This document shows positions 18,623 to 34,022 of a stretch of DNA of 34,022 bases, in pieces. Within the stretch, counting starts at the first letter, position 1. Every line of letters starts with the position of its first letter. The stretch covers positions 1 to 34,022 of the forward strand of contig JABHUT010000145.1 in NCBI GenBank assembly GCA_018658685.1, given 5' to 3'. Source of the DNA: Alphaproteobacteria bacterium (GTDB lineage Bacteria > Pseudomonadota > Alphaproteobacteria > MED-G09). The translations under genes were made by a program, and so were the position numbers. Below the pieces are notes generated by a model. That model had not been told where the DNA came from and ran no database searches. It worked only from the letters and a program-made list of their open reading frames with translations.

Positions 18623-19495
18623 TTGACAGATTCAAAACAAAGATTTGGTTTATCTTATGATGAGCTAGCTACAAGAGAGACTGTCTATAAAGAAAATCTT
18701 CTTGATGGTCACTCTGTTTTAATAACAGGGGCTGGAAGCGGAATGGGAAAAGCAATGGCATTTCTTTTTGCTCGCCTTGGCGCAAAAGTGACTATCTGTG
18801 GCCGTAAAGAAGAAAAATTAATCAAAGTTTATGATGAAATTTTTAATCGGTGTGGAAAAAAAATTTTTTGGGAAGTTTCAAATGTTCGTGATCCAGATAA
18901 AGTAGAAGGGATGCTAGATGGTATTTTAGAACGTGATGGAAAAATTGATACAGTTATTAATAACGCTGGAGGACAATTTCCTCAAGATGCCATAGATTTT
19001 TCCCGAAAGGGGTGGCTTGCCGTTGTCGATCTTAATTTAAATGGACCTTGGTGGGTTATGCAAGAAGCAGCAAAGCGTTGGAAAAAATCTGGAACACATG
19101 GAAATATTATAAATTTAGTGGCTAATGTAGAAAGAGGCATGCCTCAAGCGGCTCATACTTGTGCCGCTAGGGCTGGAACAATTTATTTATCTAAAACTTT
19201 GGCAACAGAATGGGCACCTTATAAAATCAGAGTTAATTGTATTGCCCCTGGCACAATTGAAACTGAAGGATTTGAAGTTTATCCAGATAAAGCATTAGAG
19301 AGATTTCATAAAGCAAACCCAATGCAAAAATTAGGTGATGTTTGGGATATAGCAGAAGCATCTGTTTACTTAGCTTCTGATTCAGGAAGTTTTGTGACAG
19401 GAGAAATTTTAACAATTGATGGCGGTATGGCTCAATGGGGCGTTGTTTGGCCAGCAGGTATGCCTGATTATTTTAAAATGGATGGAGGAGATTAA
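18623..19495 (+). CDS. SDR of the PECR/DECR subgroup (trans-2-enoyl-CoA / 2,4-dienoyl-CoA reductase-like)
   Basis: TTG start 6 nt after AAGGA. Motifs are TGAGSGMG and NNAGGQFPQDAIDFSRKGWLAVVDLNLNG. In AHTCAARAGTIYLSKTLATEWAPYKIRVNCIAPGTI, AARAG replaces the classical YxxxK. Both blocks track my recollection of human PECR (NNGGGQF...[33 protein letters not shown]...[11 protein letters not shown]). Confidence 0.75.
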   Translation: MTDSKQRFGLSYDELATRETVYKENLLDGHSVLITGAGSGMGKAMAFLFARLGAKVTICGRKEEKLIKVYDEIFNRCGKKIFWEVSNVRDPDKVEGMLDGILERDGKIDTVINNAGGQFPQDAIDFSRKGWLAVVDLNLNGPWWVMQEAAKRWKKSGTHGNIINLVANVERGMPQAAHTCAARAGTIYLSKTLATEWAPYKIRVNCIAPGTIETEGFEVYPDKALERFHKANPMQKLGDVWDIAEASVYLASDSGSFVTGEILTIDGGMAQWGVVWPAGMPDYFKMDGGD

Positions 19496-20472: not shown

Positions 20473-21447
20473 GTGCAATTAAGTAAGGATAAATTATTAG
20501 ACGCATATACTAGAATGAAAAAGATTAGAGTCTTTGAAGAAACTATGCGTGATGAGTTTGCTAAGGGAACTGTTCCAGCATTTATACATCTTTATATAGG
20601 CCAGGAAGCAATAGCGACAGGTATATGTGTTGAGCTAAACGATACTGATACAATTTCTAGTACTCACAGAGGTCACGGACATTGTATCGCCAAGAAGTCA
20701 AACCTCGAAAAAATGACAATGGAAATTTTTTGTCGAGCTGATGGTTTATGTGAGGGTAAGGGCGGTTCTATGCATATTGCTGATCTCTCAGTTGGGATGC
20801 TTGGAGCAAATGCAATAGTTGGTGCTAATGCCCCTATTGCTGTTGGAGCAGCATTAAAACAAAGGGTTTTAGGTGAAAATTTAGTTTCCGCAGCATTTAT
20901 TGGTGACGGTGCTTCAAATCAAGGTGCTGTATTTGAATCAATGAATCTTGCTAGTGTATTAAAACTTCCTGTTTTATTTGTTTTTGAGAATAACGGTTAT
21001 GGTGAATTTACGGGAGTGGATTATCATTGTGGAGGAGGAGATATTGCAGGAAGAGCAAAAGGGTTTGGTATGCCATCTTATAAAGTAGATGGATCTGATT
21101 TTTTTGCTGTTCAAGAAGTTGCTGCCGAAGCTGCTGAGAGGGCAAGAAAAGGAGAAGGACCTAGTGCAATAGAATGTGTAGCAAAAAGATGGTATGGACA
21201 TTTTGAAGGTGATCCTCAGCACTATCGTACAAAAGAGGAACTTGAAACCATAAGAAGAGATTTTGATCCATTAAAAATTTTTCGTAAAAAAGTAGAAGAG
21301 GCGGGTCTTGTTGACAGTAAAGATTTAAATATGATTGATGAAGATCTTTCAAGCGAAGTTACAGCAGCAGTTGAAAAGGCAAAGAATAGCCCCTTACCTA
21401 ATGTTGAAGAGCTAACGACTAATGTATACGAAAAAGGGAGCTACTAA
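20473..21447 (+). CDS. Thiamine-diphosphate-dependent 2-oxoacid/acetoin dehydrogenase E1 component, alpha subunit
   Basis: GTG start after GGGAGAGGGA. 324 aa with TPP motif GDGASNQGAVFESMNLASVLKLPVLFVFENNGY (GDG-x26-NN) and HRGHGH upstream. Confidence 0.9.
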   Translation: MQLSKDKLLDAYTRMKKIRVFEETMRDEFAKGTVPAFIHLYIGQEAIATGICVELNDTDTISSTHRGHGHCIAKKSNLEKMTMEIFCRADGLCEGKGGSMHIADLSVGMLGANAIVGANAPIAVGAALKQRVLGENLVSAAFIGDGASNQGAVFESMNLASVLKLPVLFVFENNGYGEFTGVDYHCGGGDIAGRAKGFGMPSYKVDGSDFFAVQEVAAEAAERARKGEGPSAIECVAKRWYGHFEGDPQHYRTKEELETIRRDFDPLKIFRKKVEEAGLVDSKDLNMIDEDLSSEVTAAVEKAKNSPLPNVEELTTNVYEKGSY

Positions 21448-22460
21448 TGAGCATTAAAACTTATAGAGAGTCTATTATTGAGGCAATGATCCTCGAGATG
21501 AAACGTGATGAGAAAGTGTTTGTGATTGGTGAAGACATTTCAGGTGGAAGAGGTTGTGGTGATTTTGAGGGCGAAGCTGCTGGTGGCCCAATGGGTTTAA
21601 CTCAAGGTTTATGGGATGAATTTGGAGCAAAAAGAGTCATTGACACACCTATTAGTGAAACAGCAATTATGGGAGCGGCTGCAGGAGCAGCTCTTTCTGG
21701 TCTTAGGCCAATAGCAGAATTAATGTTTTCAGATTTTTTTGGTGTTTGTTTTGACCAAATTTATAATCAAGCAGCAAAGTTTCGTTTTATGTATGGTGAA
21801 CAAGGCGCAACCCCTCTCGTAATTAGAACGATGATAGGCGCAGGAATTGGTTGTGGTCCACAACACTCTCAATCACCTTATTCAATTTTTGCAAATATAC
21901 CTGGTTTAAAAGTAGTCACGCCTTCAAATCCTTATGATGCGAAAGGGCTTTTAATTTCTGCAATTCGAGACAATGATCCGGTCATGTTTTGTGAACATAA
22001 ATCCCTTCTTGGTATGGAAGGAGAGGTCCCTGATGATTCTTACGAGGTTCCTCTTGGAAAAGGGAAAATTATAAAAGAAGGTAATGATATTACCATTGTT
22101 GCTATTGGTCAGATGGTTGGAATTACTCAAGGATGTCTAACAAAATTAGAGGAAAAAGGTATTTCTGCAGAAATTATCGACCCTAGATCTCTATCGCCTT
22201 TTGATGAGGATATGGTTTATGATAGTGTTGAAAAAACTGGGAGACTTTTAGTGATTGATGAATCAAATCCAGTTTGTTCATTTGGATCTTGGATAACTAG
22301 TATGGTTAGTGATGAAGTATTTTCTTCTCTTAAAGCTCCTACAAGAGTTTTAACACCACCACATTGTCCTGTTCCCGCCGCACCTAACCTAGAGGCTGCT
22401 TATTTACCCGACATGGAAAGGATTGTTGAGGCAACAGATTATCTTACAAATTACAGCTAG
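21447..22460 (+). CDS. 2-oxoacid/acetoin dehydrogenase E1 component, beta subunit
   Basis: 337 aa. The ATG overlaps the alpha stop by 1 nt (TAATG). The pyrimidine-binding domain is VIDTPISETAIMGAAAGAALSGLRPIAELMFSDF, followed by a transketolase-C-like tail. Confidence 0.9.
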   Translation: MSIKTYRESIIEAMILEMKRDEKVFVIGEDISGGRGCGDFEGEAAGGPMGLTQGLWDEFGAKRVIDTPISETAIMGAAAGAALSGLRPIAELMFSDFFGVCFDQIYNQAAKFRFMYGEQGATPLVIRTMIGAGIGCGPQHSQSPYSIFANIPGLKVVTPSNPYDAKGLLISAIRDNDPVMFCEHKSLLGMEGEVPDDSYEVPLGKGKIIKEGNDITIVAIGQMVGITQGCLTKLEEKGISAEIIDPRSLSPFDEDMVYDSVEKTGRLLVIDESNPVCSFGSWITSMVSDEVFSSLKAPTRVLTPPHCPVPAAPNLEAAYLPDMERIVEATDYLTNYS

Positions 22461-24292
22461 TCTAATAACTCGAAATTTAATAAAACGTTACCAGCCATAT
22501 TACCACCATATTGGTAGCCAGAATTCATAAATAGATTACTGCCCGCTATAACCGGTCCAAGACCTTCAATGGTTCCGCCATATGCTTTAATATCCGTAAA
22601 TTCTGAAAAATCAACATTCGTGTTAAATTCCCATAACAGCTTGCCTGAAGTATTATCCAAAATATACATCCATCCATCCATGCCAGCGGCAATTATTATA
22701 TCATTTGTAGAACTAAGAGCTGCTGAAATTCCTCTATCACAAGCACCACCAAGCCCTTCACATCTATCTTGAGGTTCAAATTTCCAGTTTAGTGATCCGG
22801 TTTTCGCATCCAGAGAGTAGACTCCGGGTGTAGCTGGACCAGGAAATTTATTAATATAGTTTTTATCAGAAATTCCCGCAAAAATACTCTTTCCATCCGT
22901 CGTCATACCCCAATGAACTCCACCAGCAAACCCACCTCTTCCTATTTTTTTTGACCATAAAAGCTTTCCATTTTGATCTGGATCTAAAGCATAAACATGT
23001 CCTGATTTCCTGCCTCCAAAGAGTATACTCTTGTCATCATCCAAGTCTATTAAGATTGTTGAGGCTCCAAAATCCCAATCTGGTCCATTTTCTTCAGGAC
23101 AACCTGATCCAGATGAAATAAAGCAACCCATATTCCATGCATCACCAGTCTGTGCTTGAAAAGACCAAACAATCCCACCTTTAGTTTTATCAATTGCTAA
23201 AATTGAATCACTCGTATCTGCTGCTGGTGATGTATATGATTCACCAGTCCCTACATAAATAAGATTCCTCTTATTATCCACTGTTGGAGAATTCCATACA
23301 GGAACCCCAGAAGGTGCTAAAATTTTCTTACCAGATTCATTATATTTTCCAGTATGTTTCGGAGGTACTGGTATAGAATAAGTTCTCCATAACTCATCTC
23401 CATTTTCAGCACTTAAAGCCATTACACCACCCCTAAAAGAACAACACTCATAATCTGGGTTTGCTCCATCAGCCCACTCTCGAGATGAAAGTGGAACATA
23501 AATGACGTTATCGTATACTCGAACTGATCCAGTTAGTATTACTCTTGGATGATATCTAAGAGATTTAGTCCAGAGGTTTTCTCCAGTAATTGCATCATGC
23601 TTATAAACATTTCCTTCATAATCGCCAGAGAAAACAAAATACTTTCCGTTTATTTTTTCTAATACTGGTGCAGATCTAATTTCGCCTTGAATTTTAGTTC
23701 TCCAGCGAACACAGCCATCATCTCTATCTAAAGCATAAAGATGTGAATTTTGATCGCCGATAAAGACTACATTACCAGAAACAGAAGGTTGAGACCTTGA
23801 TCTTGTGGCGCCCGGAAATGCAAAGACCCATTTTAATTTTAGTTTATCTAAATTTTGACTATCTATATTAGAGTTAGTATTTCTAGTATTTTCTCGATCA
23901 TAACCCCATTGAGTATATGAATTATTATTGAATTTTATAGTTGAATTTTTTTCACAATATTTTGGTTCAGGTAAATTTGTTGTTATAGGGCTTCCACTAA
24001 TATATTCTGCAAGCTTAACCTTTTCTTTATCTGTTAAGTGAGACGATTGAGATGACATTACACCATTTAAAGTTTCTAATATATAATCTGCTGACATGGC
24101 AGAGAATGTAGTCGCATGAGGTGCTCTTGGCGTACCCCCGCTATGACAACCCAAACAAGATTCATTAAAAATTTTTCCTGAAATCTTATCTGATCCGGTA
24201 AATAAACCCCCCTCATCTTCAACAGCTGTACTTGCATGCGTTGGGGATGAGTAGGTTGATATAAATAACAGTAAGAATAAAATTTTTTTCAT
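22457..24292 (-). CDS. Quinohemoprotein: N-terminal cytochrome c domain fused to PQQ-type beta-propeller dehydrogenase (polyvinyl-alcohol-dehydrogenase-like architecture)
   Basis: 611 aa with a signal peptide (MKKILFLLLFISTYSSPTHAS). The heme-c motif CLGCH is at residues 46-50 (nt 24143-24157), with a candidate distal Met in NGVMSS. The propeller opening is WGYDRENTRNTN...LKLKWVF. A vicinal Cys-Cys (YECCSF, nt 23441-23446) resembles PQQ alcohol dehydrogenases. Confidence 0.75.
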   Translation of the reverse strand: MKKILFLLLFISTYSSPTHASTAVEDEGGLFTGSDKISGKIFNESCLGCHSGGTPRAPHATTFSAMSADYILETLNGVMSSQSSHLTDKEKVKLAEYISGSPITTNLPEPKYCEKNSTIKFNNNSYTQWGYDRENTRNTNSNIDSQNLDKLKLKWVFAFPGATRSRSQPSVSGNVVFIGDQNSHLYALDRDDGCVRWRTKIQGEIRSAPVLEKINGKYFVFSGDYEGNVYKHDAITGENLWTKSLRYHPRVILTGSVRVYDNVIYVPLSSREWADGANPDYECCSFRGGVMALSAENGDELWRTYSIPVPPKHTGKYNESGKKILAPSGVPVWNSPTVDNKRNLIYVGTGESYTSPAADTSDSILAIDKTKGGIVWSFQAQTGDAWNMGCFISSGSGCPEENGPDWDFGASTILIDLDDDKSILFGGRKSGHVYALDPDQNGKLLWSKKIGRGGFAGGVHWGMTTDGKSIFAGISDKNYINKFPGPATPGVYSLDAKTGSLNWKFEPQDRCEGLGGACDRGISAALSSTNDIIIAAGMDGWMYILDNTSGKLLWEFNTNVDFSEFTDIKAYGGTIEGLGPVIAGSNLFMNSGYQYGGNMAGNVLLNFELLD

Positions 24293-24315
24293 TTACTAAT
24301 TCCTTAAATATATAA

Positions 24316-24966
24316 TTATTTCTTAATTCCAGCATATAAGATATCTACGTGATCAGAGGAATACTTACCAATATTTATAGTTCGATTAATCATAATTGTT
24401 CTTAAGCTTAAATGCTCTAGCCCTCCATAGAATTGACTTTCAAAGACAGGGAAATTTAGACTCTCTTTAACTTCACCAATCTCTATTGAATTCTCAATAA
24501 TATTTTTGAGTATTTTTGAATATCTTTTTTTAACTATATGGGCTTCAGAATCTTTATATTTTTCCCAACGCAATTCTTTAATAAAGAGTTTATGAATTTT
24601 TGGAGTTGCTTTCATCCCTTCAAGATATCTGATAGCTAAAAATAGTAGGCGAGAGTATAGGTCTGTTACTTCCTGGATATCTTTTTCAGTTTTTTCTATA
24701 AAAGGCTCAAACCATTCATTAACTATTTGATTAAGCAAATCTTGTTTATTATCAAAATATTTATAAATAGTTGCTTCAGATATTCCAGCTGCTTTAGAAA
24801 TTTTTACCATTGATAAATCATTGATTCCACCTTCTTCGAGAATTCTTTTTGACGCTTCAATTATTTCTTTTGGGCGAGAGCTTTTGCGACGTTTCCAAGC
24901 ATTTTGATGGCTTGATATAGCTTTAATATTAGATTCTGATAATTGATTTTTTACCGATCTTCCCAT
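24316..24966 (-). CDS. TetR/AcrR-family transcriptional regulator
   Basis: 216 aa. The N-terminal HTH is LSMVKISKAAGISEATIYKYFDNKQDLL, followed by a helical ligand-binding domain. A strong RBS (AAGGAAGG) precedes the ATG. It lies 23 nt upstream of the quinohemoprotein gene on the same strand. Confidence 0.85.
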   Translation of the reverse strand: MGRSVKNQLSESNIKAISSHQNAWKRRKSSRPKEIIEASKRILEEGGINDLSMVKISKAAGISEATIYKYFDNKQDLLNQIVNEWFEPFIEKTEKDIQEVTDLYSRLLFLAIRYLEGMKATPKIHKLFIKELRWEKYKDSEAHIVKKRYSKILKNIIENSIEIGEVKESLNFPVFESQFYGGLEHLSLRTIMINRTINIGKYSSDHVDILYAGIKK

Positions 24967-25062
24967 AAGACCTTCCTTATTAATGTATTATTTAATATTA
25001 ATCATTATATTATATATGTATAACATTTTTTGATAGTAATGATAGTTTGCAAAGGTAATTAG

Positions 25063-25560
25063 GTGGTTAAGGAAAATAAAAAAATATGGGAAGAATTAAT
25101 CTCAAAACCTAAAGGGCTTCCAAATGATATTTTTTCTGGACTTAGTTTTCCTGGCGGAACTTTTTTTATCGACACCAATACAAACTTATTAATTTATAAA
25201 TCAACAGGCATGATTGTTAATAAAAAAAATCTAAATAACTTTATACATGCTCACCCTATTTTTTTATTCACTTCTACATTAAGGGGTTCAGGTGCGTCCA
25301 TACAGGATATTTTTGATTTATTGGATTATGATGTAAATAATGGTCCGATGCTTGGCCAGTGTAATATGTCTTTCAAATCACCATTACAATTAGAACGAGA
25401 ATATAAGATTGATGGAAAAATTGTTTCACTAAAAGAAAAGATAAGCAAAAAACTCGGAAGGATTAAGATTTTAGATTTTACTTTATCAATGTTTGATAAT
25501 CATAATTCGAAAGTAGCTAGTGTTGATTATGTATGGATACTTCCGGAGAAGGAGGCATAA
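25063..25560 (+). CDS. Hot-dog fold protein resembling the non-catalytic N-terminal half of MaoC dehydratases (MaoC_dehydrat_N-like)
   Basis: 165 aa with a GTG start after AAAGG. AHPIFLFTSTLRG and MLGQCNMSFKSPLQLEREYKIDGKIVSLKEK...GRIKILDFTLSMFDNHNSKVASVDYVWIL match the hot-dog helix/sheet pattern. No D-x-N-P-x-H catalytic motif is present. Confidence 0.45.
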   Translation: MVKENKKIWEELISKPKGLPNDIFSGLSFPGGTFFIDTNTNLLIYKSTGMIVNKKNLNNFIHAHPIFLFTSTLRGSGASIQDIFDLLDYDVNNGPMLGQCNMSFKSPLQLEREYKIDGKIVSLKEKISKKLGRIKILDFTLSMFDNHNSKVASVDYVWILPEKEA

Positions 25561-25967
25561 TGTATAGTAAAGGATCTAATTTAAAGGATTGGGCGTTTTT
25601 AGTACCTCAGGAAAGTATGAATACTTGGGCTGTTATTCTAGACGATCCAAACCCTATTCATCTAGATGCTAATGCTGCCAAACAAGTCGGTTTGGGTGAC
25701 AAAACTATAAATCAAGGCCCGGCAAATATTGCTTATATATTGAACATGATTGAAGAAAATTTTCCTAACTCTCGAATTCTAAAGATGAATAATAAGATGA
25801 CTGATTCAGTTCTTGAGGGTGATTTAGTAACTGTTTCTGGACAGATTTCAGAAATTAAAGCTGAAGGTGATCAATTTATTGCTTCATGTTCAATAAAGTT
25901 AACTGTAGGAGAAGATAAAATTGCTGTATTATCTGAAATTGATGTATTGTTTGAGAGATCTCAATAA
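25560..25967 (+). CDS. MaoC-like (R)-specific enoyl-CoA hydratase, catalytic hot-dog subunit
   Basis: The track ORF starts at 25533. ATG 25560 overlaps the upstream stop by 1 nt (TAATG) and follows GGAGAAGGAGG, so it is preferred. The hydratase-2 motif is present: WAVILDDPNPIHLDANAAK (D-x-N-P-I-H-x5-A). Confidence 0.75.
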   Translation: MYSKGSNLKDWAFLVPQESMNTWAVILDDPNPIHLDANAAKQVGLGDKTINQGPANIAYILNMIEENFPNSRILKMNNKMTDSVLEGDLVTVSGQISEIKAEGDQFIASCSIKLTVGEDKIAVLSEIDVLFERSQ

Positions 25968-26377
25968 ACCTTTCTTAGCTTCATCCACCAGTCCTGAACT
26001 TCCGCTGCATGACTTTCGCCATATTCTTTTGCTAAATCAGATGCGTCCTCAGGTACTTTTTGCATTTCTGTAACCCCGACAGGTGCTGCGTCTTCAATAG
26101 GGTCCAACCATTCGAGATTAATATCCTCAATAACTCCATCATATTGTGCACCAGCTGCTTCATGATATTCACTGATTTGATGTTTAAGTAAAAAATCTAA
26201 ATATGTGGGGTAGACCAAAAGAGTATAATAGGAACTTCTTTCTCTTCCTCTATAGTATTCATAGCGAATAATGCAATCCTCATTAGCGTGTGATTGTTTA
26301 TATAGTTCTTTTGACAGTTCTTCGAATTTTTGCTCTTGACCTTCTACTATTTTAATATGGGCTAATAAAGACGACAT
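25961..26377 (-). CDS. ABM (antibiotic-biosynthesis-monooxygenase / Dabb ferredoxin-like) domain protein with ~45-aa C-terminal extension, paralog 1
   Basis: 138 aa. LLAHIKIVEGQEQKFEEL...EDCIIRYEYY...YYTLLVYPTYLDFLLKHQISEYH follows the ABM pattern (beta1-KpG-x-F ... E-x-gC-x-Y ... E-x-W-x-s-x-a-x-H-x-x-s-x-H). The family call is made by eye only. Confidence 0.45.
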   Translation of the reverse strand: MSSLLAHIKIVEGQEQKFEELSKELYKQSHANEDCIIRYEYYRGRERSSYYTLLVYPTYLDFLLKHQISEYHEAAGAQYDGVIEDINLEWLDPIEDAAPVGVTEMQKVPEDASDLAKEYGESHAAEVQDWWMKLRKVY

Positions 26378-26429
26378 GTTTAACTCCTTTGCTAAATTAT
26401 TATATTATTTTCTTATAAAGTTCTTTTAT

Positions 26430-26843
26430 TTATTTTTCTCTTAAATCAAACCACCATTTTTGAACTACAGCAGGATAGGTTTCTATATATTCTTTTGCTA
26501 ATTCAGGAGCATTTTCAGGTAACTCTTGCATTTCTGTAATACCTACGGGTGCTGCATTTTCAATAGGATCTAACCATTCAAGGTCTAGGCTCTCAATAAC
26601 TCCTCCGAATTGAGCTCCAGCCTCTTCATGATGTTTGCTAATTTGATGCTTAATAAGAAAATCTAAATATGTTGGATAAACTAATAACGAGTAATAAGAG
26701 TTTTTCTCTCTTCCTCTATAATGCTCATAACGAATAATACAATCTTCATTGGCATGCGATTGTTTGTAGAGTTCCTTTTGAAGTTCTTCGAATTTTTGTT
26801 CTTGACCCTCTACGACTTTAACGTGCGCAAGTAGTGATGACAT
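26430..26843 (-). CDS. ABM-domain protein with C-terminal extension, paralog 2
   Basis: 137 aa, collinear with paralog 1 (104 of 137 aligned residues identical by hand alignment), with the same ABM-like pattern. Confidence 0.45.
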   Translation of the reverse strand: MSSLLAHVKVVEGQEQKFEELQKELYKQSHANEDCIIRYEHYRGREKNSYYSLLVYPTYLDFLIKHQISKHHEEAGAQFGGVIESLDLEWLDPIENAAPVGITEMQELPENAPELAKEYIETYPAVVQKWWFDLREK

Positions 26844-26871
26844 GATTGCTTCCTTTTTATTATTGAATTAT

Positions 26872-27387
26872 TTATTTATCTAGCTTTCTATATTTTTCAT
26901 TATCGGCCCTAAGGTTGAAACCTAAAAATAAGCCTCCGAGATCACCTCTAATACCCTCTGATTTGACAGAAAAATTATCATCTAAAATATACAACCTTCT
27001 ACTAACCTTCCAGCCTTCAGGTGTTTTCGAAAATTCATCATGATATCTACCGCAATAAACATTAACATCTTGAATTCCAGCCTCGGTTATTTCACCGCCT
27101 GAGGTTAGTCCATAACTTTCTACTTCCGCTTTATCACCATTTATCTCAATGGCTACATTGCTGATTAAATGCCAGCTATGACCACCTTTCTCAACTTCCA
27201 TAACTGCGGGGATAAAACCTTTTGCATCTCCTGCATAAAATCCATAATCAATGAAGCCATCTTCTATAAAGCAACTTCTCAAGAGGTCTTCATCCATCCA
27301 GTCAAGTGCACGACAATATCTTGTTAAGCAATCGTTAATACTTTGTATTGCCTCAATTTTTTCTAATCTTTCTTCAATATTGCTCAT
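26872..27387 (-). CDS. SnoaL_4-type NTF2-fold protein (ring-hydroxylating-dioxygenase-beta-like fold)
   Basis: 171 aa. IEAIQSINDCLTRYCRALDWMDEDLLRSCFIEDGFIDYG is the typical SnoaL_4 opening. First gene of the minus-strand SnoaL_4/ABM/ABM unit. Confidence 0.6.
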   Translation of the reverse strand: MSNIEERLEKIEAIQSINDCLTRYCRALDWMDEDLLRSCFIEDGFIDYGFYAGDAKGFIPAVMEVEKGGHSWHLISNVAIEINGDKAEVESYGLTSGGEITEAGIQDVNVYCGRYHDEFSKTPEGWKVSRRLYILDDNFSVKSEGIRGDLGGLFLGFNLRADNEKYRKLDK

Positions 27388-27423
27388 AATGCCTCCATAT
27401 AAATAATCGTTGATAACTTACTC

Positions 27424-27436
27424 TACAAACACAAAA
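27424..27436 (-). promoter_or_regulatory. Shared 13-nt element copy 1 (TTTTGTGTTTGTA on minus strand), 36 nt upstream of the SnoaL_4 start
   Basis: Exact 13-mer TACAAACACAAAA (plus strand), identical to 29962-29974. Its TTGTA end can serve as a -35 for the minus-strand gene. Confidence 0.3.
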
Positions 27437-27440
27437 AATA

Positions 27441-27469
27441 TTGTCAATTAGTAAAGAGGCAAGTATAAA
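27441..27469 (+). promoter_or_regulatory. Candidate sigma-70 promoter for the PQQ dehydrogenase gene
   Basis: TTGTCA (27441-27446), 17 nt, TATAAA (27464-27469). It lies about 30 nt upstream of the TTG start and its AGGAG RBS. Confidence 0.35.
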
Positions 27470-27500
27470 ATAATGTATTTTTTATTCAGGAGAAAGAATT

Positions 27501-29465
27501 TTGCGAAGTCTATTAATTATTTTATTCTTTATTTTATATACTTCTCAAGGTTACTCAGAGGTTGATGACTGGTCTTCTTATGGAAAAGACTCAGGCGGCG
27601 GCCATTATTCTAAAGCTACAGAGATTACTCCTGAAAATGTAAAAAATTTAAAAAAAGTTTGGACACATCGATCTGGTGATTATCACAAGGGTTTAAACTG
27701 GACAGAAGATGTTACACCAAACAGCAGTCAGCAAACATCTTTTCAAGCCACTCCTCTTTTAGTGAATGAAACTTTATATTATTGCACTCCTTATAATAGA
27801 GTTTTTGCTTTGGACCCTGCAACAGGTGAGGAAAAATGGATTTTTGATCCGAAAGTTGAAAAAGAGGGTAAAGCACTTATGCACTGCAGAGGTGTTGGTA
27901 GTTGGATTGATAGTGAAAAAGTTGAATCTGATAAATGTTATCATAGGATTATCACAGGAACAATTGATGCAGAGCTCTTTTCTATTGACGGAAAAACTGG
28001 AGAGCTATGTAAGGACTTTGGTGATGATGGTCTTGTCGATTTAAGATCCGGTCTAGGCGATCACAATCCAGCATTTTATTATAGTGTTTCACCACCAGCT
28101 ATTATAGGTGATTTAGTAATCGTTGGCGGAGGCATTCCTGATAATGTAAGTACTTCTGTACCGGGAGGTGTAGTTCGTGCTTATGATATTCGGACAGGTG
28201 AGTTAGTTTGGTATTGGGACCCTATTCCTCCAGGTCAAGAACCAGTTATCGATGATCTAGGAAACCAGTTATATCAAAGAGGGACAACAAATGTTTGGTC
28301 GATAATTTCGACCGACCCTGAATTAAATCTTGTTTATTTACCAACTGGTAATACTGCAGCAGATAATTATGGTGGCCATCGAAATGGATCAGACTATTAT
28401 TCTAGTTCTGTTGTTGCATTAAACGCCTCAACTGGAGAGGTTGTTTGGCATTTTCAAACAGTTCATCATGATATTTGGGATTATGATGTTCCATCACAAC
28501 CAACTTTTTATGATATAAAAAAAGACGGAAAGATTATTAAGGCTTTAGCTCAAACAACAAAGATGGGATTAGTTTTTTTACTGAATAGAGAAACTGGTGA
28601 ACCTATTTTTCCAATTGAAGAAAGAGATGTACCCCAAGGAGCCGTGGATGGTGACTATGTTACAAAGACACAACCTTTTCCATCAAAGCCAGCACCTCTT
28701 ACTCCGACTTATTTAGATCCTGAAGATGTTTTTGGCTTTACTCCTTGGGATAAAGGATATTGTAAAAAAGCTGCCGAAGATTATAGGAATGAAGGTCTTT
28801 ATACACCTCCATCAATTGAAGGTAGTGTCCATTATCCAAGCGCGATTGGGGGAGCGAATTGGGGTGGTCCTGCAATTGATGCTTCTAGAAATATTCTCAT
28901 TGCAAATACTATGAACCTCTCCAGTACTATAGTAATGATCCCAAGAAGTGATTGTGATAAAGCCCTTAAAGATTTAGCAAGGGATAGCGTTCAATCAAGA
29001 TTTTCAGCATTGCAACAAAATGAAGGGACGCCTTATTGTACAATTAGAGCTTTTGGTTTTATGTCACCTTTAGGTGTTCCATGTACAAAACCACCTTGGG
29101 GCAATCTAACGGCAATTGATTTAGATACTGGAGAGCATTTGTGGCAAATTCCTCTTGGAACTTCTAAAGATTTAGCACCTTTTCCATTTTGGTGGATAAA
29201 AGGGGCTCCTAATATAGGGGGACCTACAGTAACTGCTTCAGGCTTAACATTTATTGCGGCAACTAGTGATTATTATTTGCGAGCATTTAATACTTTAACA
29301 GGTGAAGAGTTAGCTAAGTTTCGATTACCAACTGGGGGCCACGCAACACCTATGACTTATAAAAATAAGAATGGCAAACAATTTGTAGTTATAGCTGCTG
29401 GAGGTCACTGGGCTGTAGGATCACCAGCTTCTGATCACTTGATAGCATATGCCCTTCCAGACTAG
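27501..29465 (+). CDS. PQQ-dependent dehydrogenase, glucose/quinate/shikimate family, secreted form without N-terminal membrane anchor
   Basis: TTG start 8 nt after AGGAG, with signal peptide MRSLLIILFFILYTSQGYS. 654 aa. Motifs: DDWSSYGKDSGGGHYSKATEITPENVKNLKKVWTHRSGD, HHDIWDYDVPSQPTF and GGANWGG. No vicinal Cys-Cys, as in the GDH type. Confidence 0.85.
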   Translation: MRSLLIILFFILYTSQGYSEVDDWSSYGKDSGGGHYSKATEITPENVKNLKKVWTHRSGDYHKGLNWTEDVTPNSSQQTSFQATPLLVNETLYYCTPYNRVFALDPATGEEKWIFDPKVEKEGKALMHCRGVGSWIDSEKVESDKCYHRIITGTIDAELFSIDGKTGELCKDFGDDGLVDLRSGLGDHNPAFYYSVSPPAIIGDLVIVGGGIPDNVSTSVPGGVVRAYDIRTGELVWYWDPIPPGQEPVIDDLGNQLYQRGTTNVWSIISTDPELNLVYLPTGNTAADNYGGHRNGSDYYSSSVVALNASTGEVVWHFQTVHHDIWDYDVPSQPTFYDIKKDGKIIKALAQTTKMGLVFLLNRETGEPIFPIEERDVPQGAVDGDYVTKTQPFPSKPAPLTPTYLDPEDVFGFTPWDKGYCKKAAEDYRNEGLYTPPSIEGSVHYPSAIGGANWGGPAIDASRNILIANTMNLSSTIVMIPRSDCDKALKDLARDSVQSRFSALQQNEGTPYCTIRAFGFMSPLGVPCTKPPWGNLTAIDLDTGEHLWQIPLGTSKDLAPFPFWWIKGAPNIGGPTVTASGLTFIAATSDYYLRAFNTLTGEELAKFRLPTGGHATPMTYKNKNGKQFVVIAAGGHWAVGSPASDHLIAYALPD

Positions 29466-29479
29466 GCTGTTGATTAATA

Positions 29480-29920
29480 TTAAATAATTATTAATGCTTC
29501 TCTAAATATCATGATAGCTAGAGCTATCCAGCTTAACATAAAAAGAGAAAATCTAAACCACACAAGATTAATTGTTGCTTGAAGAATAGAATGAATAATT
29601 CTAATTACAACATAAGTCCAAGCACAATAAAGGTGAAGAACATCCGTATGATTAAGACCCCAAATTATAAATGAAATTGCGTAAAATATAGTTGGTTGTT
29701 CAAAAAGATGATTATAATTATCCGCAACTCTTTCAACTTTACTAGGAAAAATTCCACCAATTGAAGCAGGGTGTGAGAACTTTTGAACATCAACTCCATC
29801 TTCTTCAAGTTTTTTTGCTGCGGGGAGTCTAGTTGCATACATCCAAACCATCATCACAAAAGATAATACACACATTATAATGGCTGGTTGTAATATTAAA
29901 TCATTCATAAGTTTCTCCAA
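29480..29920 (-). CDS. MAPEG-family small membrane protein (glutathione-transferase-like)
   Basis: 146 aa with four hydrophobic segments. RVADNYNHLFEQPTIFY resembles the R-x-x-x-N-x-x-E-x-x-P core of bacterial MAPEG proteins. Confidence 0.5.
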   Translation of the reverse strand: MEKLMNDLILQPAIIMCVLSFVMMVWMYATRLPAAKKLEEDGVDVQKFSHPASIGGIFPSKVERVADNYNHLFEQPTIFYAISFIIWGLNHTDVLHLYCAWTYVVIRIIHSILQATINLVWFRFSLFMLSWIALAIMIFREALIII

Positions 29921-29961
29921 TTTAAGAAGTACTCTAATATATTATGATTAAATATGAATCT

Positions 29962-29974
29962 TACAAACACAAAA
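29962..29974 (-). promoter_or_regulatory. Shared 13-nt element copy 2, 41 nt upstream of the MAPEG start
   Basis: Exact TACAAACACAAAA. On the minus strand, TTGTAA -16 nt- TAATAT follows, giving a plausible -35/-10. Confidence 0.3.
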
Positions 29975-29995
29975 TAATATGATTTTATCGATTTA

Positions 29996-30023
29996 TTGAC
30001 AGTTATAAAAACTCAAGTAAAAT
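29996..30023 (+). promoter_or_regulatory. Candidate sigma-70 promoter for the VOC / NTF2-like gene pair
   Basis: Perfect -35 TTGACA (29996-30001), 16-nt spacer, -10 TAAAAT (30018-30023). Confidence 0.4.
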
Positions 30024-30050
30024 TTTGTTATTAGGATGGGGGTATCTAAT

Positions 30051-30512
30051 ATGGCAATTAACGGTTTGCATCATGCGGCAATTTCAACACCTGATATTGA
30101 TAGATTGATGAAGTGGTATAATGATAATTTTGGTTTCGAAGAGGTTTCAAGGTCTGAATGGCCCTCGGGATCTGAACAAATCGATGATGTCGTCGGCTTA
30201 AGAAGTAGTGCGGCAAAGCAAGGTTTTTTAAAATGCGGTAATATTATGATTGAATTTTTCGAGTATTCTAGTCCAGAACCTGAGTTAATGGACAGGAATC
30301 GTCCAGTCAACAATCATGGTCATACTCATGTTTGTATAGATGTAACAAATATTGAGGAGGAATATGAAAGATTAGTTAAAAATGGTGTTACATTTCATGC
30401 TCCACCTCAAGATTTTGGTCAGGTAAAGGCAACCTACGGTCGAGATATTGATGGTAATGTTTTTGAGTTACAAGAAATTATTGCAAAAGACCATCCAGCA
30501 AGAGTATTTTAA
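30051..30512 (+). CDS. VOC-family protein (glyoxalase / bleomycin-resistance / extradiol-dioxygenase fold)
   Basis: The track ORF starts at ATG 30036. ATG 30051 (MAINGLHHAAISTPDIDRLMKWYNDNFGFEE) sits 6 nt after a G-rich RBS and downstream of the predicted promoter, so it is preferred. A second beta-alpha-beta-beta-beta module follows: GHTHVCIDVTNIEEEYERLVKNGVTFH...DGNVFELQE. Confidence 0.8.
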   Translation: MAINGLHHAAISTPDIDRLMKWYNDNFGFEEVSRSEWPSGSEQIDDVVGLRSSAAKQGFLKCGNIMIEFFEYSSPEPELMDRNRPVNNHGHTHVCIDVTNIEEEYERLVKNGVTFHAPPQDFGQVKATYGRDIDGNVFELQEIIAKDHPARVF

Positions 30513-30533
30513 AATTTTTCATTAAGGCCAATT

Positions 30534-30929
30534 ATGAATTCTAATTTAATAACAAGTGAAGAGTTATTAAGTCTTCTTCAAGATATATATTTTAATAATA
30601 TTGACTCCGCTAATGCTGAATTCGCAGTACAGGCTATGCATGAGTCTGTTGAATGGATTCATACCCAGGTTTGGGAGCATGATGGCCATGATGCTAGCAC
30701 TATTGATACATTGAATGGACGTGAAGCGGTTAAGAAATTTCTTATCGGCCGGGTAAAAGAGATGCAAGTCGAAGGCATTATTCATAAAGTGCATAAAGTA
30801 TTGACTGATGGTACTTCTGGAGCTTTCCAGGCGAGTGTAATAGGTGTTGATGGAAGTGAAAAATCATTCTCTGGTTGGGTTGAGATAAAAGATAAAAAAA
30901 TAATTTCTTACCGAGTAATGCCTCTGTAA
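30534..30929 (+). CDS. Small NTF2/SnoaL-like fold protein (tentative)
   Basis: 131 aa. The length, the N-terminal helices followed by beta-rich GAFQASVIGVDGSEKSFSGWVEIKDKKIISYRVMP, and the context suggest an NTF2-like cone. No diagnostic motif is present. Confidence 0.35.
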   Translation: MNSNLITSEELLSLLQDIYFNNIDSANAEFAVQAMHESVEWIHTQVWEHDGHDASTIDTLNGREAVKKFLIGRVKEMQVEGIIHKVHKVLTDGTSGAFQASVIGVDGSEKSFSGWVEIKDKKIISYRVMPL

Positions 30930-30935
30930 AGTTAT

Positions 30936-32525
30936 TTATTTACCAAAAACTTTTTCTCCCAAGTCGAAATTTTTTAATTTAAATTTTTGAACTTTTGTTG
31001 AAGACATAGGCCAATCATCTATAAAGACAATATATCTAGGAATTTTAAAATTTGAGATTTGTCCTTTTGAAAATACGATAAGATCTTCTTTTGATATTTT
31101 TGATCCAGGTTTTCTTTCAACAAATAACGCTGGAACTTCACCAAGGTGGTCATCATCCACTCCAACTACTTGACTGATCAAAACTTCTTCGTGGCTATCA
31201 AAATAAGCTTCAATTTCCAACGCTGCTACATTTTCTCCACCAACCTTCAACATATCTTTTAATCTTCCATGAAAACGAATATGCCCTTCTTTACTTAAAG
31301 ACCCAATATCCCCACTTGAAAACCAACCATCTGATGATAAGGCATTCTCAGTTGCTTTTTTATCATTTAAATAACCGGAAAATACGTGCTTTCCTTTAAT
31401 TTCAATAAGTCCTTTTTCATCCGGACCTAGAACTTCATTTGTTTCAGGGTTTAATATCCTTATTTCTGCACCTGGCCATGGTTTGCCGCATGTTGAGATT
31501 CTGTCTTCCAGAGAATCTTCAGGTGAGCCAAATGAGGTAACACCTCCCACCTCTGTTAATCCATAAGCAGAAACTAAGCTAGCTTGAGGAACTTTATTTT
31601 GGAAGGACCTTAAAGTTTCTATTGGGGCTACGTTATTTATTAATCTTAGGCTTTTGAGATTTTCAGGTAAGAAATCTTGATGGTTAATAAGCGAAACCAT
31701 TACAGCTGGAAAAGCAGGAAAAGCAATTGAAACATCTTTTTCAATTAATGTTTTAATTGAAGTATCAGGATCAAAATGAATAGTTGAGATAAAGGTTGAT
31801 TTTGAAATTGCACAGGCCATAAATGGAAGTATTGATGACATATGAAACATAGGAAGAGGGTCCCAAAAAACATCTTCTTCGCTCATACTCCATCTATTGA
31901 CCATTGCGTTTGCAACATAAATTAAACTTGCATGGCTTAAAGGACATCCTTTTGGATTTGCAGTTGTTCCAGATGTATACATAATAAATGCTGGATCATC
32001 ATCTTGGCCTATTGGGTCTTGGTGAATTTTATTGTTTACTTCAATCTCTTCAAAGTCTTTAAAGTCCTTAAATCTTTTATCTTTAGATCCACCTATAATG
32101 TATACATCAGATAGATTTTGAGGCTTTCCTTCAGGGGAATCATAGACGGAACTTATTAAATTAGAGAAATTAGTTACTTCATCAGAATCTGAGCTAGTAA
32201 ACAATGCTTTGCAACCACTATCATGCATTACATAGTGAAGTTCTTTTGCCTTATAACGAGCATTAATATTTACCGGAACAATACCTGCGTAAATGGCACC
32301 ATACATAAGAGTTAGATATTCAATTGAATTGAATAAAAGTATTCCTACTTTATCTCCCTTTTGAAGACCAAGCTCTCTAAATTTTTTGGCATATGAGGTT
32401 GTAAGTTCTGAAAATTCTTCGAAACTTAATGTTCTATTGTCTACTGTTAAGCAATCTTTTTTAGAAAATTTATCATCAAAAATGGTTGATATTTGTCCTA
32501 AATTTTTAGCATCCTTTAAATTCAT
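30936..32525 (-). CDS. AMP-dependent acyl-CoA synthetase/ligase
   Basis: 529 aa with YTSGTTANPKG, YGLTEVGG, SGDIGSLSKEGHIRFHGRLKDMLKVGGENVAALEIE and the C-terminal Lys region SSTKVQKFKL. Confidence 0.9.
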   Translation of the reverse strand: MNLKDAKNLGQISTIFDDKFSKKDCLTVDNRTLSFEEFSELTTSYAKKFRELGLQKGDKVGILLFNSIEYLTLMYGAIYAGIVPVNINARYKAKELHYVMHDSGCKALFTSSDSDEVTNFSNLISSVYDSPEGKPQNLSDVYIIGGSKDKRFKDFKDFEEIEVNNKIHQDPIGQDDDPAFIMYTSGTTANPKGCPLSHASLIYVANAMVNRWSMSEEDVFWDPLPMFHMSSILPFMACAISKSTFISTIHFDPDTSIKTLIEKDVSIAFPAFPAVMVSLINHQDFLPENLKSLRLINNVAPIETLRSFQNKVPQASLVSAYGLTEVGGVTSFGSPEDSLEDRISTCGKPWPGAEIRILNPETNEVLGPDEKGLIEIKGKHVFSGYLNDKKATENALSSDGWFSSGDIGSLSKEGHIRFHGRLKDMLKVGGENVAALEIEAYFDSHEEVLISQVVGVDDDHLGEVPALFVERKPGSKISKEDLIVFSKGQISNFKIPRYIVFIDDWPMSSTKVQKFKLKNFDLGEKVFGK

Positions 32526-32651: not shown

Positions 32652-34022
32652 ATGATTAATATTGGTCTTACAACGGCAAAACAAGCAGAGCTTCGTCCAA
32701 ACTCTTGGGCTGTATATGATCAGACTTCAGGAAAAAGAATAACATTTTTTGAGTTGGATGAATTAGTTAAAAAGACTGCTAATGGCCTTATGAGCCTTGA
32801 TTTAAAGAAAGGTGATAGAGTTTCGATTCTTTCACAAAATTCGATTGAATTTCTATCCCTCTTTTTTGCTTGTGGACGGGTTGGTTTGGTTGCTCATGCG
32901 CTAAATTGGCGATTGGGTGTGGATGAGTTAGCTCAGATATTAAAAAATGGCGAACCTAGTGTGATTATAACTCAGGGTAAGTTTCAAAGTGTAGCTAAAG
33001 ATTTACAGAAGAAGATAGATTTTATTGACCATTGGTTGGAGTATGATGTTGATAGTGATCATTCTTTTAATTTGTTATTAGATAAGTCACCGTCAACAGA
33101 GCCAATAGTAGCAGAAGATATTGGTGACGAAGATCCTTTTTTTATTTTGTATACGGGTGGAACAACTGGCGTTTCCAAAGGGGCTTTGCATACTCATAAA
33201 TCTGCATATTTTGGTATGTTAAACCAAACAGTTGCTGAACGAATAGTGCCTTCAGATGTCTATATGCTTACGGGTCAAATGTTTCATATTCCTGTTTTGT
33301 TGGCTATGAATTACACCTCTCACGGTTGCCCCATTGTTTTGATGAATTTCGATGCTGAACTTGCACTGAATCTTATTCAGGAAGAAAAGGTCTCTGGATT
33401 TCTTGGAATTACAACAATGCTTAATTGGATGCTAGCAGTTGAAGGTTTCGATAACTTTGATTTATCAAGCTTAAGGTGCGTTCAATATGGAGGTGGTCCA
33501 ATGCCAACTCGAGTAATAGAGGAAGTTCTTCAGAAACTTCCTGGTGGTATTATTCAGGGTTATGGACAAACAGAAGGAACTACTATGACATTTCTTTCTC
33601 AAGAAGATCATATTAATGCAGTAAACGGCATTCATCCTGAAAGACTTAAATCTTGTGGTCGAGCAGGATATGTTACATCTGTTCTTGTTGTTGGGCCTGA
33701 TGGAAAGCCTGTCCCAAATGACAATAAAACACCTGGTGAAATAATAGTTAAGTCTGATGCAAATATGGTTGGTTATTATCGTCAACAAGAGTTAACCGAT
33801 AAATGTATAAAAGATGGATGGATGTGGACAGGCGATATAGCAACCTGGGATGATGAGCAATATATTTTTATTAAGGATAGGGCAAAAGATATGATTATAT
33901 CTGGCGGCGAGAATATATACTCTGTTCAGGTAGAAGAGGCTGTATCACAGCATGAGGCTGTACTTGAAACTGCAGTTTTTGGAATACCTGATGATGAATG
34001 GGGTGAATCAGTTATGGCTTAT
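32652..34022 (+). CDS. AMP-dependent acyl-CoA synthetase/ligase, 5' 457 codons; continues beyond window end
   Basis: Not in the ORF track because there is no stop in the window. Hand translation from ATG 32652 gives MINIGLTTAKQAELRPNSWAVYDQTSGKRITFFELDELVKK... with YTGGTTGVSKG, GYGQTEGT, TGDIATWDDEQYIFIKDRAKDMIISGGENIYSVQVE and FGIPDDEWGESVMAY at the edge. The frame is open for exactly 1371 nt. Confidence 0.85.
   Translation, partial: MINIGLTTAKQAELRPNSWAVYDQTSGKRITFFELDELVKKTANGLMSLDLKKGDRVSILSQNSIEFLSLFFACGRVGLVAHALNWRLGVDELAQILKNGEPSVIITQGKFQSVAKDLQKKIDFIDHWLEYDVDSDHSFNLLLDKSPSTEPIVAEDIGDEDPFFILYTGGTTGVSKGALHTHKSAYFGMLNQTVAERIVPSDVYMLTGQMFHIPVLLAMNYTSHGCPIVLMNFDAELALNLIQEEKVSGFLGITTMLNWMLAVEGFDNFDLSSLRCVQYGGGPMPTRVIEEVLQKLPGGIIQGYGQTEGTTMTFLSQEDHINAVNGIHPERLKSCGRAGYVTSVLVVGPDGKPVPNDNKTPGEIIVKSDANMVGYYRQQELTDKCIKDGWMWTGDIATWDDEQYIFIKDRAKDMIISGGENIYSVQVEEAVSQHEAVLETAVFGIPDDEWGESVMAY

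Follow-up and report, generated by a model that had tools for sequence, protein, structure and literature searches.

The genes considered here surround the gene for a secreted dehydrogenase that joins a heme-c domain to a pyrroloquinoline quinone (PQQ) propeller; an initial annotation, made from the letters alone, had delimited them as a block at 22457-32525 of a 34,022-nt stretch of DNA (here called the window; G+C approx. 35%) from a PS1/OCS116 marine alphaproteobacterium. The closest described systems are the acetoin dehydrogenase system (AcoA, AcoB, AcoC and AcoL with a butanediol dehydrogenase and an acetoin reductase), the cytochrome-type polyvinyl alcohol (PVA) dehydrogenase PvaA (EC 1.1.2.6), the membrane-bound PQQ glucose/quinate/shikimate dehydrogenases (TIGR03074), a group of NTF2-like proteins that includes BaiE (which acts on bile acids as a 7-alpha-dehydratase), SteC, LinA and scytalone dehydratase, and the steroid side-chain and ring clusters (ChsE acyl-CoA dehydrogenase (ACAD) pairs, ChsH MaoC proteins, Ltp2 thiolase with DUF35, FadD). 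Comparison of the block with these systems and with related loci leads us to regard it, with moderate confidence, as the central part of a catabolic island that is conserved in the PS1/OCS116 clade and directed at a hydroxylated hydrophobic substrate, i.e., a diol- or polyol-bearing lipid, isoprenoid or alicyclic compound. The island is built from known protein families.

Conservation was assessed by tblastn of all window proteins against 23 related loci, none shorter than 12 kb. When GTDB species representatives were scanned with the ABM family of the block, 24 loci were returned, nearly all of them from the PS1 clade, the OCS116 cluster, a Rhodobiaceae metagenome-assembled genome or MED-G09. 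Among the 23 loci, the heme-c/PQQ enzyme and the MAPEG protein were each found in 22, the SnoaL_4, VOC and NTF2-like proteins each in 20, and MaoC and a second ACAD (ACAD_c) each in 19, while acyl-CoA ligase b was found in 17 (some loci stop before its position) and the ACAD pair with its MaoC gene (14670-17326 in the window) in 17-19. That the genes should be neighbours in relatives, as the initial annotation had proposed to check, was borne out for the core, which is kept together in 20-22 of the 23 loci at 60-95% protein identity and has no equivalog match to characterised enzymes. The gene order is stable and reads (E1a' E1b' E2), ligase c (-), ligase b (+), NTF2-like (-), VOC (-), MAPEG (+), SnoaL_4 (+), ABM (+), heme-c/PQQ (+), MaoC (-), ACAD (-), ACAD (-), SnoaL_2 (+), with MaoC and the ACAD pair directly after the PQQ gene in loci L009, L012, L014 and L024-L036. 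Outside the window's genus, MAPEG is the gene immediately upstream of SnoaL_4, and in relatives MAPEG is the first gene of the operon and PQQ the last. In L012 and L014, these four core genes are located on the same strand with gaps of approx. 10-25 bp, and this tight spacing indicates that the ancestral unit is an operon of MAPEG, SnoaL_4, ABM and PQQ. The four-gene operon is contiguous at approx. 61-66% protein identity.

The window's lineage shows several insertions into this order, i.e., a glucose dehydrogenase (GDH)-type PQQ gene between MAPEG and SnoaL_4, a duplication of the ABM gene, a hot-dog pair and a TetR gene between ABM and PQQ, and a segment with E1 alpha and beta, a medium-chain dehydrogenase/reductase (MDR), a short-chain dehydrogenase/reductase (SDR) and a Rieske oxygenase after PQQ. 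Among the 23 loci, TetR is present in 8, the hot-dog pair in 7, and the GDH-type gene and two ABM copies in 4 each. The features of the block and its left flank are as follows (window coordinates, strand, description, supporting match).

14670..17326, +, ACAD pair (large subunit and truncated partner, best match IpdE2-like) and MaoC hydratase
17372..20455, +, Rieske oxygenase (alpha-only), SDR and MDR oxidoreductase, flanked by the ACAD/MaoC genes and E1 alpha/beta
20473..21447, +, E1 alpha, thiamine diphosphate-dependent, acetoin-dehydrogenase (AcoA) type; PF00676
21447..22460, +, E1 beta (AcoB type); Transket_pyr and Transketolase_C
22457..24292, -, secreted quinohemoprotein dehydrogenase, heme-c domain then PQQ propeller, 611 aa; Cytochrome_CBB3, PQQ/PQQ_2
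24316..24966, -, TetR regulator with YsiA/FadR-like C-terminal domain; TetR_N and TetR_C_4
25063..25560, +, 165-aa protein, possible non-catalytic hot-dog partner of the next gene product; weak hhalign match to MaoC
25533..25967, +, MaoC-type (R)-specific enoyl-CoA hydratase subunit, 144 aa; PF01575, E = 1.9e-9
25961..26377, -, ABM-fold paralogue 1, 138 aa, with C-terminal two-helix extension; PF03992
26430..26843, -, ABM-fold paralogue 2, 137 aa, tandem duplicate; 76% identical to paralogue 1
26872..27387, -, SnoaL_4/NTF2-fold protein, predicted BaiE-like dehydratase; PF13577, E = 1.9e-19
27420..27447, -, promoter-like TTGACA-16-TAGAGT upstream of the SnoaL_4-ABM genes; consensus match
27501..29465, +, secreted PQQ dehydrogenase, glucose/quinate family, 654 aa; PF01011 over the full length, 764 bits
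29480..29920, -, MAPEG-family membrane protein; PF01124, E = 7e-21, hydrophobic segments
30036..30512, +, single-module VOC protein (glyoxalase I/methylmalonyl-CoA-epimerase-like); PF00903
30534..30929, +, 131-aa NTF2-like (SnoaL_2-like) protein, same direction as VOC; SnoaL_2, E = 0.002
30936..32525, -, acyl-CoA ligase b; AMP-binding domains, no equivalog cut-off reached
32652..34022, +, acyl-CoA ligase c, truncated at the right end of the window (519 aa when complete); AMP-binding
24967-25062, 27388-27500, 29921-30035 and 32526-32651, the four divergent spacers

All genes and domains named by the initial annotation were recovered in the open reading frame list and by profile searches, the 165-aa hot-dog partner and the 131-aa NTF2-like protein being the weaker calls, and its four divergent intergenic regions are present. 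Its limits for the block are arbitrary, as a larger island fills most of the window from approx. 7.3 kb and runs past the right end; in particular, they left out the adjacent AcoAB-type E1 genes (20473-22460), which are functionally part of the block. Identical contigs continue to the right of the window with the rest of ligase c and then, on the opposite strand, E2, a second E1 beta/alpha pair, ThuA and an MDR dehydrogenase. No E2 or E3 gene adjoins 20473-22460; the E2 gene and the second E1 set are located approx. 10 kb off, outside the window.

The window E1 alpha and E1 beta are 57.7% and 54.7% identical, respectively, to AcoA and AcoB of an Acinetobacter variabilis plasmid cluster that contains lipA, E1 alpha, E1 beta, E2, lpdA, acetoin reductase and 2,3-butanediol dehydrogenase genes. 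The E1 subunits of the window pair, of the second PS1 pair and of distant operons (see below) are 50-66% identical to one another and 53-59% identical to the Acinetobacter proteins. Against pyruvate dehydrogenase (PDH) models, all scores were below the cut-offs (e.g., 323 bits for window E1 alpha with PDH_E1_alph_y, which has a cut-off of 394). The identity to AcoA/AcoB, together with these sub-cut-off scores, identifies the E1 beside the PQQ gene as being of the acetoin (acyloin-cleaving) dehydrogenase type. The locus thus shares E1 alpha and beta with the acetoin system at 55-58% identity and has a lipoyl E2 just past the window; however, no orthologues of E3, acetoin reductase or butanediol dehydrogenase were found here, and in distant relatives a periplasmic quinohemoprotein gene sits between E1 beta and E2. 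The window SDR and MDR upstream of E1 alpha share only 26% and 24% identity, respectively, with the acetoin reductase and butanediol dehydrogenase of Acinetobacter, and E3 (lpdA) was found neither in the distant module loci nor in the PS1 flanks examined.

To place the heme-c/PQQ enzyme among its relatives outside the clade, we used 80 further loci obtained from context look-ups and a metagenome scan. E1 genes are the partner most often found beside its closest relatives outside PS1. E1 alpha homologues with 52-63% identity are located directly upstream of genes of the PVA dehydrogenase (PVADH) type in distant loci, and the order E1a-E1b-PQQ-E2 on one strand recurs in distant Proteobacteria among homologues of the heme-c/PQQ enzyme at 40-47% identity (L041, at 8014-13067, L047, L048, L051, L052 and L084, with variants in L013, L039, L040 and L049). 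In a tally restricted to loci with at least 2.2 kb on either side of the PQQ gene, E1 adjoins this gene in 6 of the 9 loci in the 40-47% identity tier as compared to 0 of 20 below 40% identity. In a neighbour-joining tree, the PS1 enzymes are sister to a clade that includes 10 of the 11 E1-adjacent enzymes, with the protein of Sphingopyxis (see below) as the outgroup. Next to the distant E1-PQQ modules are Cupin_7 and GDH-type PQQ genes, the latter encoding homologues of the window's GDH-type enzyme with 42-53% identity that adjoin the E1a-E1b-PQQ-E2 operons, and the vicinity often includes TonB-dependent receptors, SDRs, a P450 or an M24 peptidase. We found no description of a PQQ quinohemoprotein gene inside an aco-type operon in the limited literature searched, and the association of such an enzyme with an acyloin-cleaving complex may be new to science.

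Other partners occur in more remote PVADH-type loci, i.e., SnoaL_4 (40% identity) and SDR followed by PQQ in L081; PQQ, a 387-aa protein with no Pfam match, P450, an ABM138-like gene and SnoaL_4 (49%) in L080; and PQQ adjoining a Rieske oxygenase (54-56%) and/or an SDR (52%) in L091, L092, L099 and L111. The context of a homologue on an Aromatoleum plasmid was rich in insertion sequences and uninformative. Beside the E1-PQQ module of L013 (15701-20158), there are genes for a molybdopterin oxidoreductase, an Fe-S subunit and a NarJ-like chaperone, a set that we take to resemble the ethylbenzene/steroid-C25 dehydrogenase type of anaerobic hydroxylase.

The 611-aa heme-c/PQQ enzyme starts with a Sec-type, signal-peptide-like N-terminus, MKKILFLLLFISTYSSPTHA, followed by a Cytochrome_CBB3 domain at residues 40-98 with one CxxCH motif (C46-H50, CLGCH, unchanged in 15 homologues) and a PQQ beta-propeller; the 3' end of its gene overlaps that of the convergent E1 beta gene by 4 bp. 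PvaA has the same domain order, i.e., signal peptide, one-CxxCH heme-c domain and PQQ propeller, and several of the >3,000 homologues of the 611-aa enzyme are named "polyvinyl alcohol dehydrogenase (cytochrome)" by JGI. However, the enzyme is only 30% identical to the PQQ protein of a plasmid locus of Sphingopyxis sp. 113P3, which we take to be PvaA (the locus record is not annotated so) and which is the remotest sequence compared. Neither an oxidised-PVA hydrolase homologue nor a separate cytochrome c gene was found here, where the gene context is MAPEG, SnoaL_4, ABM and AcoAB; specifically, tblastn found no window match to the 357-aa hypothetical gene upstream of the Sphingopyxis PQQ gene, presumably the oxidised-PVA hydrolase (again, the record is not annotated so). 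As judged from its sequence, the 611-aa enzyme is a PVADH-type quinohemoprotein by architecture and is not to be filed as a PVA dehydrogenase. Residues D405-W-D407 are unchanged in 15 homologues of this enzyme; a DxD motif at the catalytic aspartate marks lanthanide-dependent PQQ alcohol dehydrogenases, and D405-W-D407 might correspond to that motif.

The second PQQ enzyme (654 aa) shares the catalytic propeller of the membrane-bound glucose/quinate/shikimate dehydrogenases over its full length, but it scores below the TIGR03074 cut-off (726.6 as compared to 832.65 bits), lacks their transmembrane anchor and has a signal peptide of cleavable type. The alignment covers profile positions 152-783 only, and past the signal-peptide-like N-terminus no hydrophobic 19-mer was detected; with positions 1-151 unmatched and no later hydrophobic stretch, the protein is a member of the glucose/quinate family without the N-terminal membrane anchor. 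Within PS1, only the window's genus has this enzyme (4 of the 23 loci); the exact 654-aa protein is indexed in 114 assembly-collection blocks, and the eight places listed are ENA metagenome assemblies. The pair of secreted PQQ dehydrogenases that headed the initial annotation is therefore present here, both enzymes having signal-peptide-like N-termini, but is not a feature of the whole clade.

For the SnoaL_4 protein, both profile and structure comparisons point to elimination chemistry. Its family profile matches BaiE (4l8p, E = 7.7e-4), and the Tyr/Asp/His residues of BaiE correspond to Y24, D29 and H73, which are invariant in 33 SnoaL_4 homologues with 35-87% identity. The AlphaFold2 model (mean predicted local distance difference test score, pLDDT, 90.6) has a C-terminal tail of approx. 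30 residues with lower confidence and no regular structure, and its best fold match in the PDB is BaiE (4leh; template modelling (TM) scores 0.74/0.76), followed in order by a putative scytalone dehydratase, LinA, LdpA and scytalone dehydratase. The characterised proteins among the fold matches are elimination enzymes throughout, and no cyclase was among the top 50 matches listed. The NTF2-like fold and the aligned Tyr/Asp/His are thus common to this protein and the BaiE, SteC, LinA and scytalone dehydratase group, from which it differs in its low sequence identity (approx. 17%) and in the approx. 30-residue tail. In BaiE, Tyr30 touches the 3-oxo group and His83 touches the 7-hydroxyl and C6 (PMC12065433), and SteC, a BaiE-like dehydratase, acts in aerobic steroid degradation (PMC13101464). 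Taking together the BaiE-like fold, the Tyr/Asp/His residues and the matches to elimination enzymes, we consider that the SnoaL_4 protein is best read as a predicted BaiE-like dehydratase acting next to a carbonyl, and not as a polyketide cyclase, which is unlikely.

The two ABM-fold proteins match PF03992 at 25.2 bits (paralogue 1; cut-off 23.1) and, just below the cut-off, 22.7 bits (paralogue 2). The model (mean pLDDT 64.5) shows an ABM fold with two additional C-terminal helices, and matches PA3566, LsrG and YgiN with target-normalised TM scores of 0.75-0.83, which, on a model of low confidence, do not discriminate function. By predicted fold, the pair belongs to the ABM superfamily, an oxygenase role being putative. 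The two proteins belong to a small family, ABM138, for which 168 representatives were counted at E <= 1e-3 among 1.84 billion proteins, and in nearly all PS1 loci a single copy lies ahead of the PQQ gene, directly or across a TetR or hot-dog insertion. The synteny of an ABM pair with the PQQ genes, suggested initially, accordingly holds for a single ABM gene kept beside PQQ, the duplicate being confined to the window's genus (4 of the 23 loci). In unrelated bacteria, an ABM138 gene is found directly 3' of an oxygenase gene, i.e., a P450 in L035 (3637-5343) and a 2-oxoglutarate-Fe(II) oxygenase in L037 (1205-2621), and at 9340-11779 of L080 a P450 gene is followed by an ABM138 gene and then by SnoaL_4; to us, this pairing recalls the EthD-type helper of P450 systems. 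In relatives, a 96-aa ABM gene is located between the divergent ligases (L010, 1019-1309; L012, 4236-4526) and is lost in the window, where the spacer is 126 bp. The ABM proteins of approx. 100 aa from between the relatives' ligases and from distant E1-PQQ loci were also considered as ABM138 members and were rejected, having no profile match and representing a different subfamily.

The 144-aa MaoC protein has the conserved hydratase motif D38-x-N-P-x-H43. The 165-aa gene, which overlaps the MaoC gene by 28 nt, accompanies it in every case (7 of the 23 loci); its product has no Pfam match, gave nothing meaningful in a PDB sequence search and matches the MaoC profile weakly by hhalign (probability 52%, E = 1.4e-4). 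On this combination, the "split hot-dog hydratase" of the initial annotation is plausible, with a MaoC subunit and a candidate partner. The 131-aa NTF2-like protein has no Pfam match at E <= 0.001 and nothing meaningful in a PDB sequence search, and it and 12 of its 14 orthologues match SnoaL_2 weakly. NCBIfam matches of the VOC protein were weak, and sequence searches found no close characterised relative of the VOC, MAPEG or NTF2-like proteins. Topology predictions place signal-peptide-like N-termini in the two PQQ enzymes only and a membrane-embedded MAPEG protein, and the other proteins look cytoplasmic.

The description of the block as TetR-linked was not sustained. TetR orthologues (at least 45% identity) are found in 8 of the 23 loci and are absent from 15, and the gene is cleanly gone (approx. 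672 bp, at approx. 7440-7570 there, corresponding to window positions 24293-25062) from L001, L003, L004 and L008, i.e., from strains with an identical GDH-type protein. In L009, L010 and L044, this ABM-PQQ junction carries another TetR that is not orthologous (28% identity). The window TetR scores 77 bits with the FadR-Bacillus model (cut-off 200). Five species of the genus keep the promoter-like TTGACA-16-TAGAGT upstream of SnoaL_4, and the sole 13-mer shared among the spacers, TACAAACACAAAA, occurs at 27424 and at 29962 (29962-29974, in the MAPEG-VOC spacer). This 13-mer is absent from the genus's other species and, with up to 2 mismatches, is not over-represented; it may be left over from a promoter that was duplicated as the operon was split by the GDH-type gene.

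Profile searches in the rest of the window identified resistance-nodulation-division (RND) efflux components, MaoC, SDR and DSBA-like proteins, a GlcD-like FAD oxidase, three more ACADs, a third ligase, a DUF35/OB protein with an SCP2-type thiolase, SnoaL_2, a Rieske oxygenase, SDR and MDR. An ammonium transporter (Amt) and a Gcw_chp protein are encoded at 5215-7190, within an otherwise catabolic island. Fragmented genes for the ligase, E2 and ThuA were seen in L003 and L004 (13436-21029), where the remaining locus is intact; the fragments are probably assembly frameshift errors or possibly pseudogenes. The segment 8636-17326 resembles steroid side-chain modules (ACAD, ligase, DUF35/OB with SCP2-type thiolase, ACAD large/truncated pair with MaoC), with scores far under the equivalog cut-offs. 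The window thus has, as do the steroid clusters, an ACAD pair with MaoC, an SCP2-type thiolase with DUF35/OB, ligases and SnoaL-like proteins, among them the BaiE-like dehydratase, and the resemblance is a partial one; however, scans of the window proteins gave no KstD-, KshA-, HsaABCD/Tes- or IpdAB-type matches, and steroid-specific NCBIfam models scored far under their cut-offs. The nearest solved relatives of the Rieske protein (17372-18601) are alpha-type oxygenases (e.g., carnitine monooxygenase) and not KshA. As this protein is not KshA-like and no ring-cleavage genes were found among the window proteins, membership in steroid degradation was rejected.

We propose a pathway in which the gene-by-gene assignments, which we infer, are held with far less confidence than the island as a whole. 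The secreted quinohemoprotein would oxidise secondary alcohols to ketones in the periplasm and pass the electrons to its own heme c, as would the secreted GDH-type enzyme where it is present. After uptake, the BaiE-like SnoaL_4 protein would eliminate the hydroxyl beside the new carbonyl to give an enone, and the MAPEG (glutathione-dependent), VOC, ABM and NTF2-like proteins might isomerise or detoxify electrophilic oxo-intermediates. An alpha-hydroxyketone (acyloin) derived from a vicinal diol would be split by the acetoin-dehydrogenase-type E1 alpha/beta and E2 into acyl-CoA and an aldehyde, and the ligases, the ACAD pair, the MaoC hydratases and the upstream thiolase with DUF35 would finish CoA-dependent degradation. 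The initial annotation had envisaged periplasmic oxidation, processing by small enzymes and capture as CoA esters; that sequence of events is compatible with the signal-peptide-like PQQ enzymes, the signal-less small enzymes and the conserved ligases and beta-oxidation-type genes, and its reactive-carbonyl chemistry is hypothetical.

Several observations weigh against reading the block as part of one catabolic island. No block protein reaches the equivalog cut-off of any characterised enzyme among NCBIfam-type models. Searches of the four divergent spacers for k-mers and palindromes found no shared operator, and in a scan for promoters and terminators consensus matches in the region were no commoner than in shuffled sequences. 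Distant SnoaL_4 homologues (37-46% identity) are not beside PQQ genes, making the SnoaL_4-PQQ link a short-range one, and synteny within one clade may partly reflect inheritance and not selection. As one periplasmic enzyme is co-encoded with cytoplasmic ones, an uptake step must be assumed, and the window has no obvious importer, TonB receptors being found in relatives only. Finally, many short units on alternating strands, with variable content between the anchors, would also fit a loose toolbox.

That toolbox, i.e., a flexible genomic island of separately regulated enzymes for many dissolved organics, kept by inheritance and recombination hot-spots and in which only sub-modules (e.g., the four-gene operon, the VOC/NTF2 pair and the ligases) are functional, is in our view an unlikely but serious competitor. 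It would account for about eight short transcription units on alternating strands, for the indels at the same junctions across species (TetR variants; TonB receptor, Cupin_7 and Rieske; the GDH-type gene; the hot-dog pair; the E1ab-MDR-SDR-Rieske segment), for the unrelated Amt and Gcw_chp genes inside the island and for the lack of a common operator in the spacers searched. It does not explain why E1ab, GDH-type, SnoaL_4, ABM, Rieske and SDR genes re-associate in unrelated lineages, nor why the four-gene operon is still contiguous at its present level of protein divergence. We give a good deal less weight to an ordinary short-chain diol/acetoin pathway, in which the PQQ enzymes would replace an NAD-dependent butanediol dehydrogenase (acting on 2,3-butanediol, 1,2-propanediol or similar), AcoABC would cleave acetoin and the small-fold proteins would be unrelated neighbours. 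Such a pathway would fit the identity of E1 alpha and beta to the AcoA/AcoB of a canonical acetoin/2,3-butanediol cluster and the SDR and MDR genes directly upstream of E1 alpha, where aco clusters carry acetoin reductase and butanediol dehydrogenase; however, these SDR and MDR proteins are remote from the Acinetobacter enzymes, and lpdA is missing from the distant module loci and PS1 flanks examined. Moreover, the distant modules occur with TonB-dependent receptors, P450s, Rieske oxygenases, epoxide hydrolase and glutathione S-transferases, and here heteromeric ACADs, MaoC hydratases, thiolase with DUF35 and three long-chain-type ligases surround the module, company and surroundings that indicate larger hydrophobic substrates.

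That the genes make or tailor a quinone, polyketide or terpenoid metabolite, as the initial annotation suggested by analogy, is very improbable. ABM and SnoaL folds do serve aromatic polyketide tailoring, and SnoaB, WhiE-ORFI and olivetolic acid cyclase are among the many fold matches of the ABM model, but neither the window nor the fetched flanks contain polyketide synthase, non-ribosomal peptide synthetase, terpene-synthase or prenyltransferase domains, the neighbours are degradative (ACADs, hydratases, thiolase, E1/E2, ligases), and the closest characterised relatives of SnoaL_4 (BaiE, LinA, scytalone dehydratase) are elimination enzymes of degradation pathways and not cyclases. Degradation of PVA or another synthetic polymer, which the JGI homologue names and the heme-c plus PQQ architecture of the Sphingopyxis plasmid protein would suggest, is the least probable of these readings; given the 30% identity to that protein, which is the outgroup of the tree, and the absence from the window of a homologue of its 357-aa upstream gene, we rejected it, and the locus is found in genomes of open-ocean plankton.

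On the reading that we prefer, a conserved catabolic island for a hydroxylated hydrophobic substrate, a further proposal can be made, which is speculative and, as a whole, rather unlikely. The subfamily of PQQ enzymes that is encoded with AcoAB-type E1/E2 (E1a-E1b-PQQ-E2, usually with a GDH-type enzyme) might represent an undescribed route in which vicinal diols of large lipids or alicyclic compounds are oxidised to acyloins in the periplasm and then cleaved at the C-C bond without O2 to acyl-CoA and an aldehyde, a route that in PS1/OCS116 would be combined with a BaiE-like dehydratase, ABM proteins of a rare family and MAPEG. If this were true, the diols could stem from the action of an oxygenase or an epoxide hydrolase on large lipids or alicyclics. 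In the limited literature searched, we found no description of a pathway with the membership of the block or of the PS1 island itself, which is no proof of novelty.

PS1/OCS116 bacteria are widespread in marine plankton, few of them are cultured, and their diet of dissolved organic matter is poorly known; the island is a testable handle on that diet, its testable parts being two secreted PQQ enzymes, a complex of the acyloin-cleaving type and a predicted dehydratase. If the route from diol through acyloin to acyl-CoA is true, it would be a new way to break the carbon chains of oxygenated lipids or alicyclic compounds, and the automatic name "polyvinyl alcohol dehydrogenase", a misleading one on which surveys of plastic degradation draw, would be put right as well.

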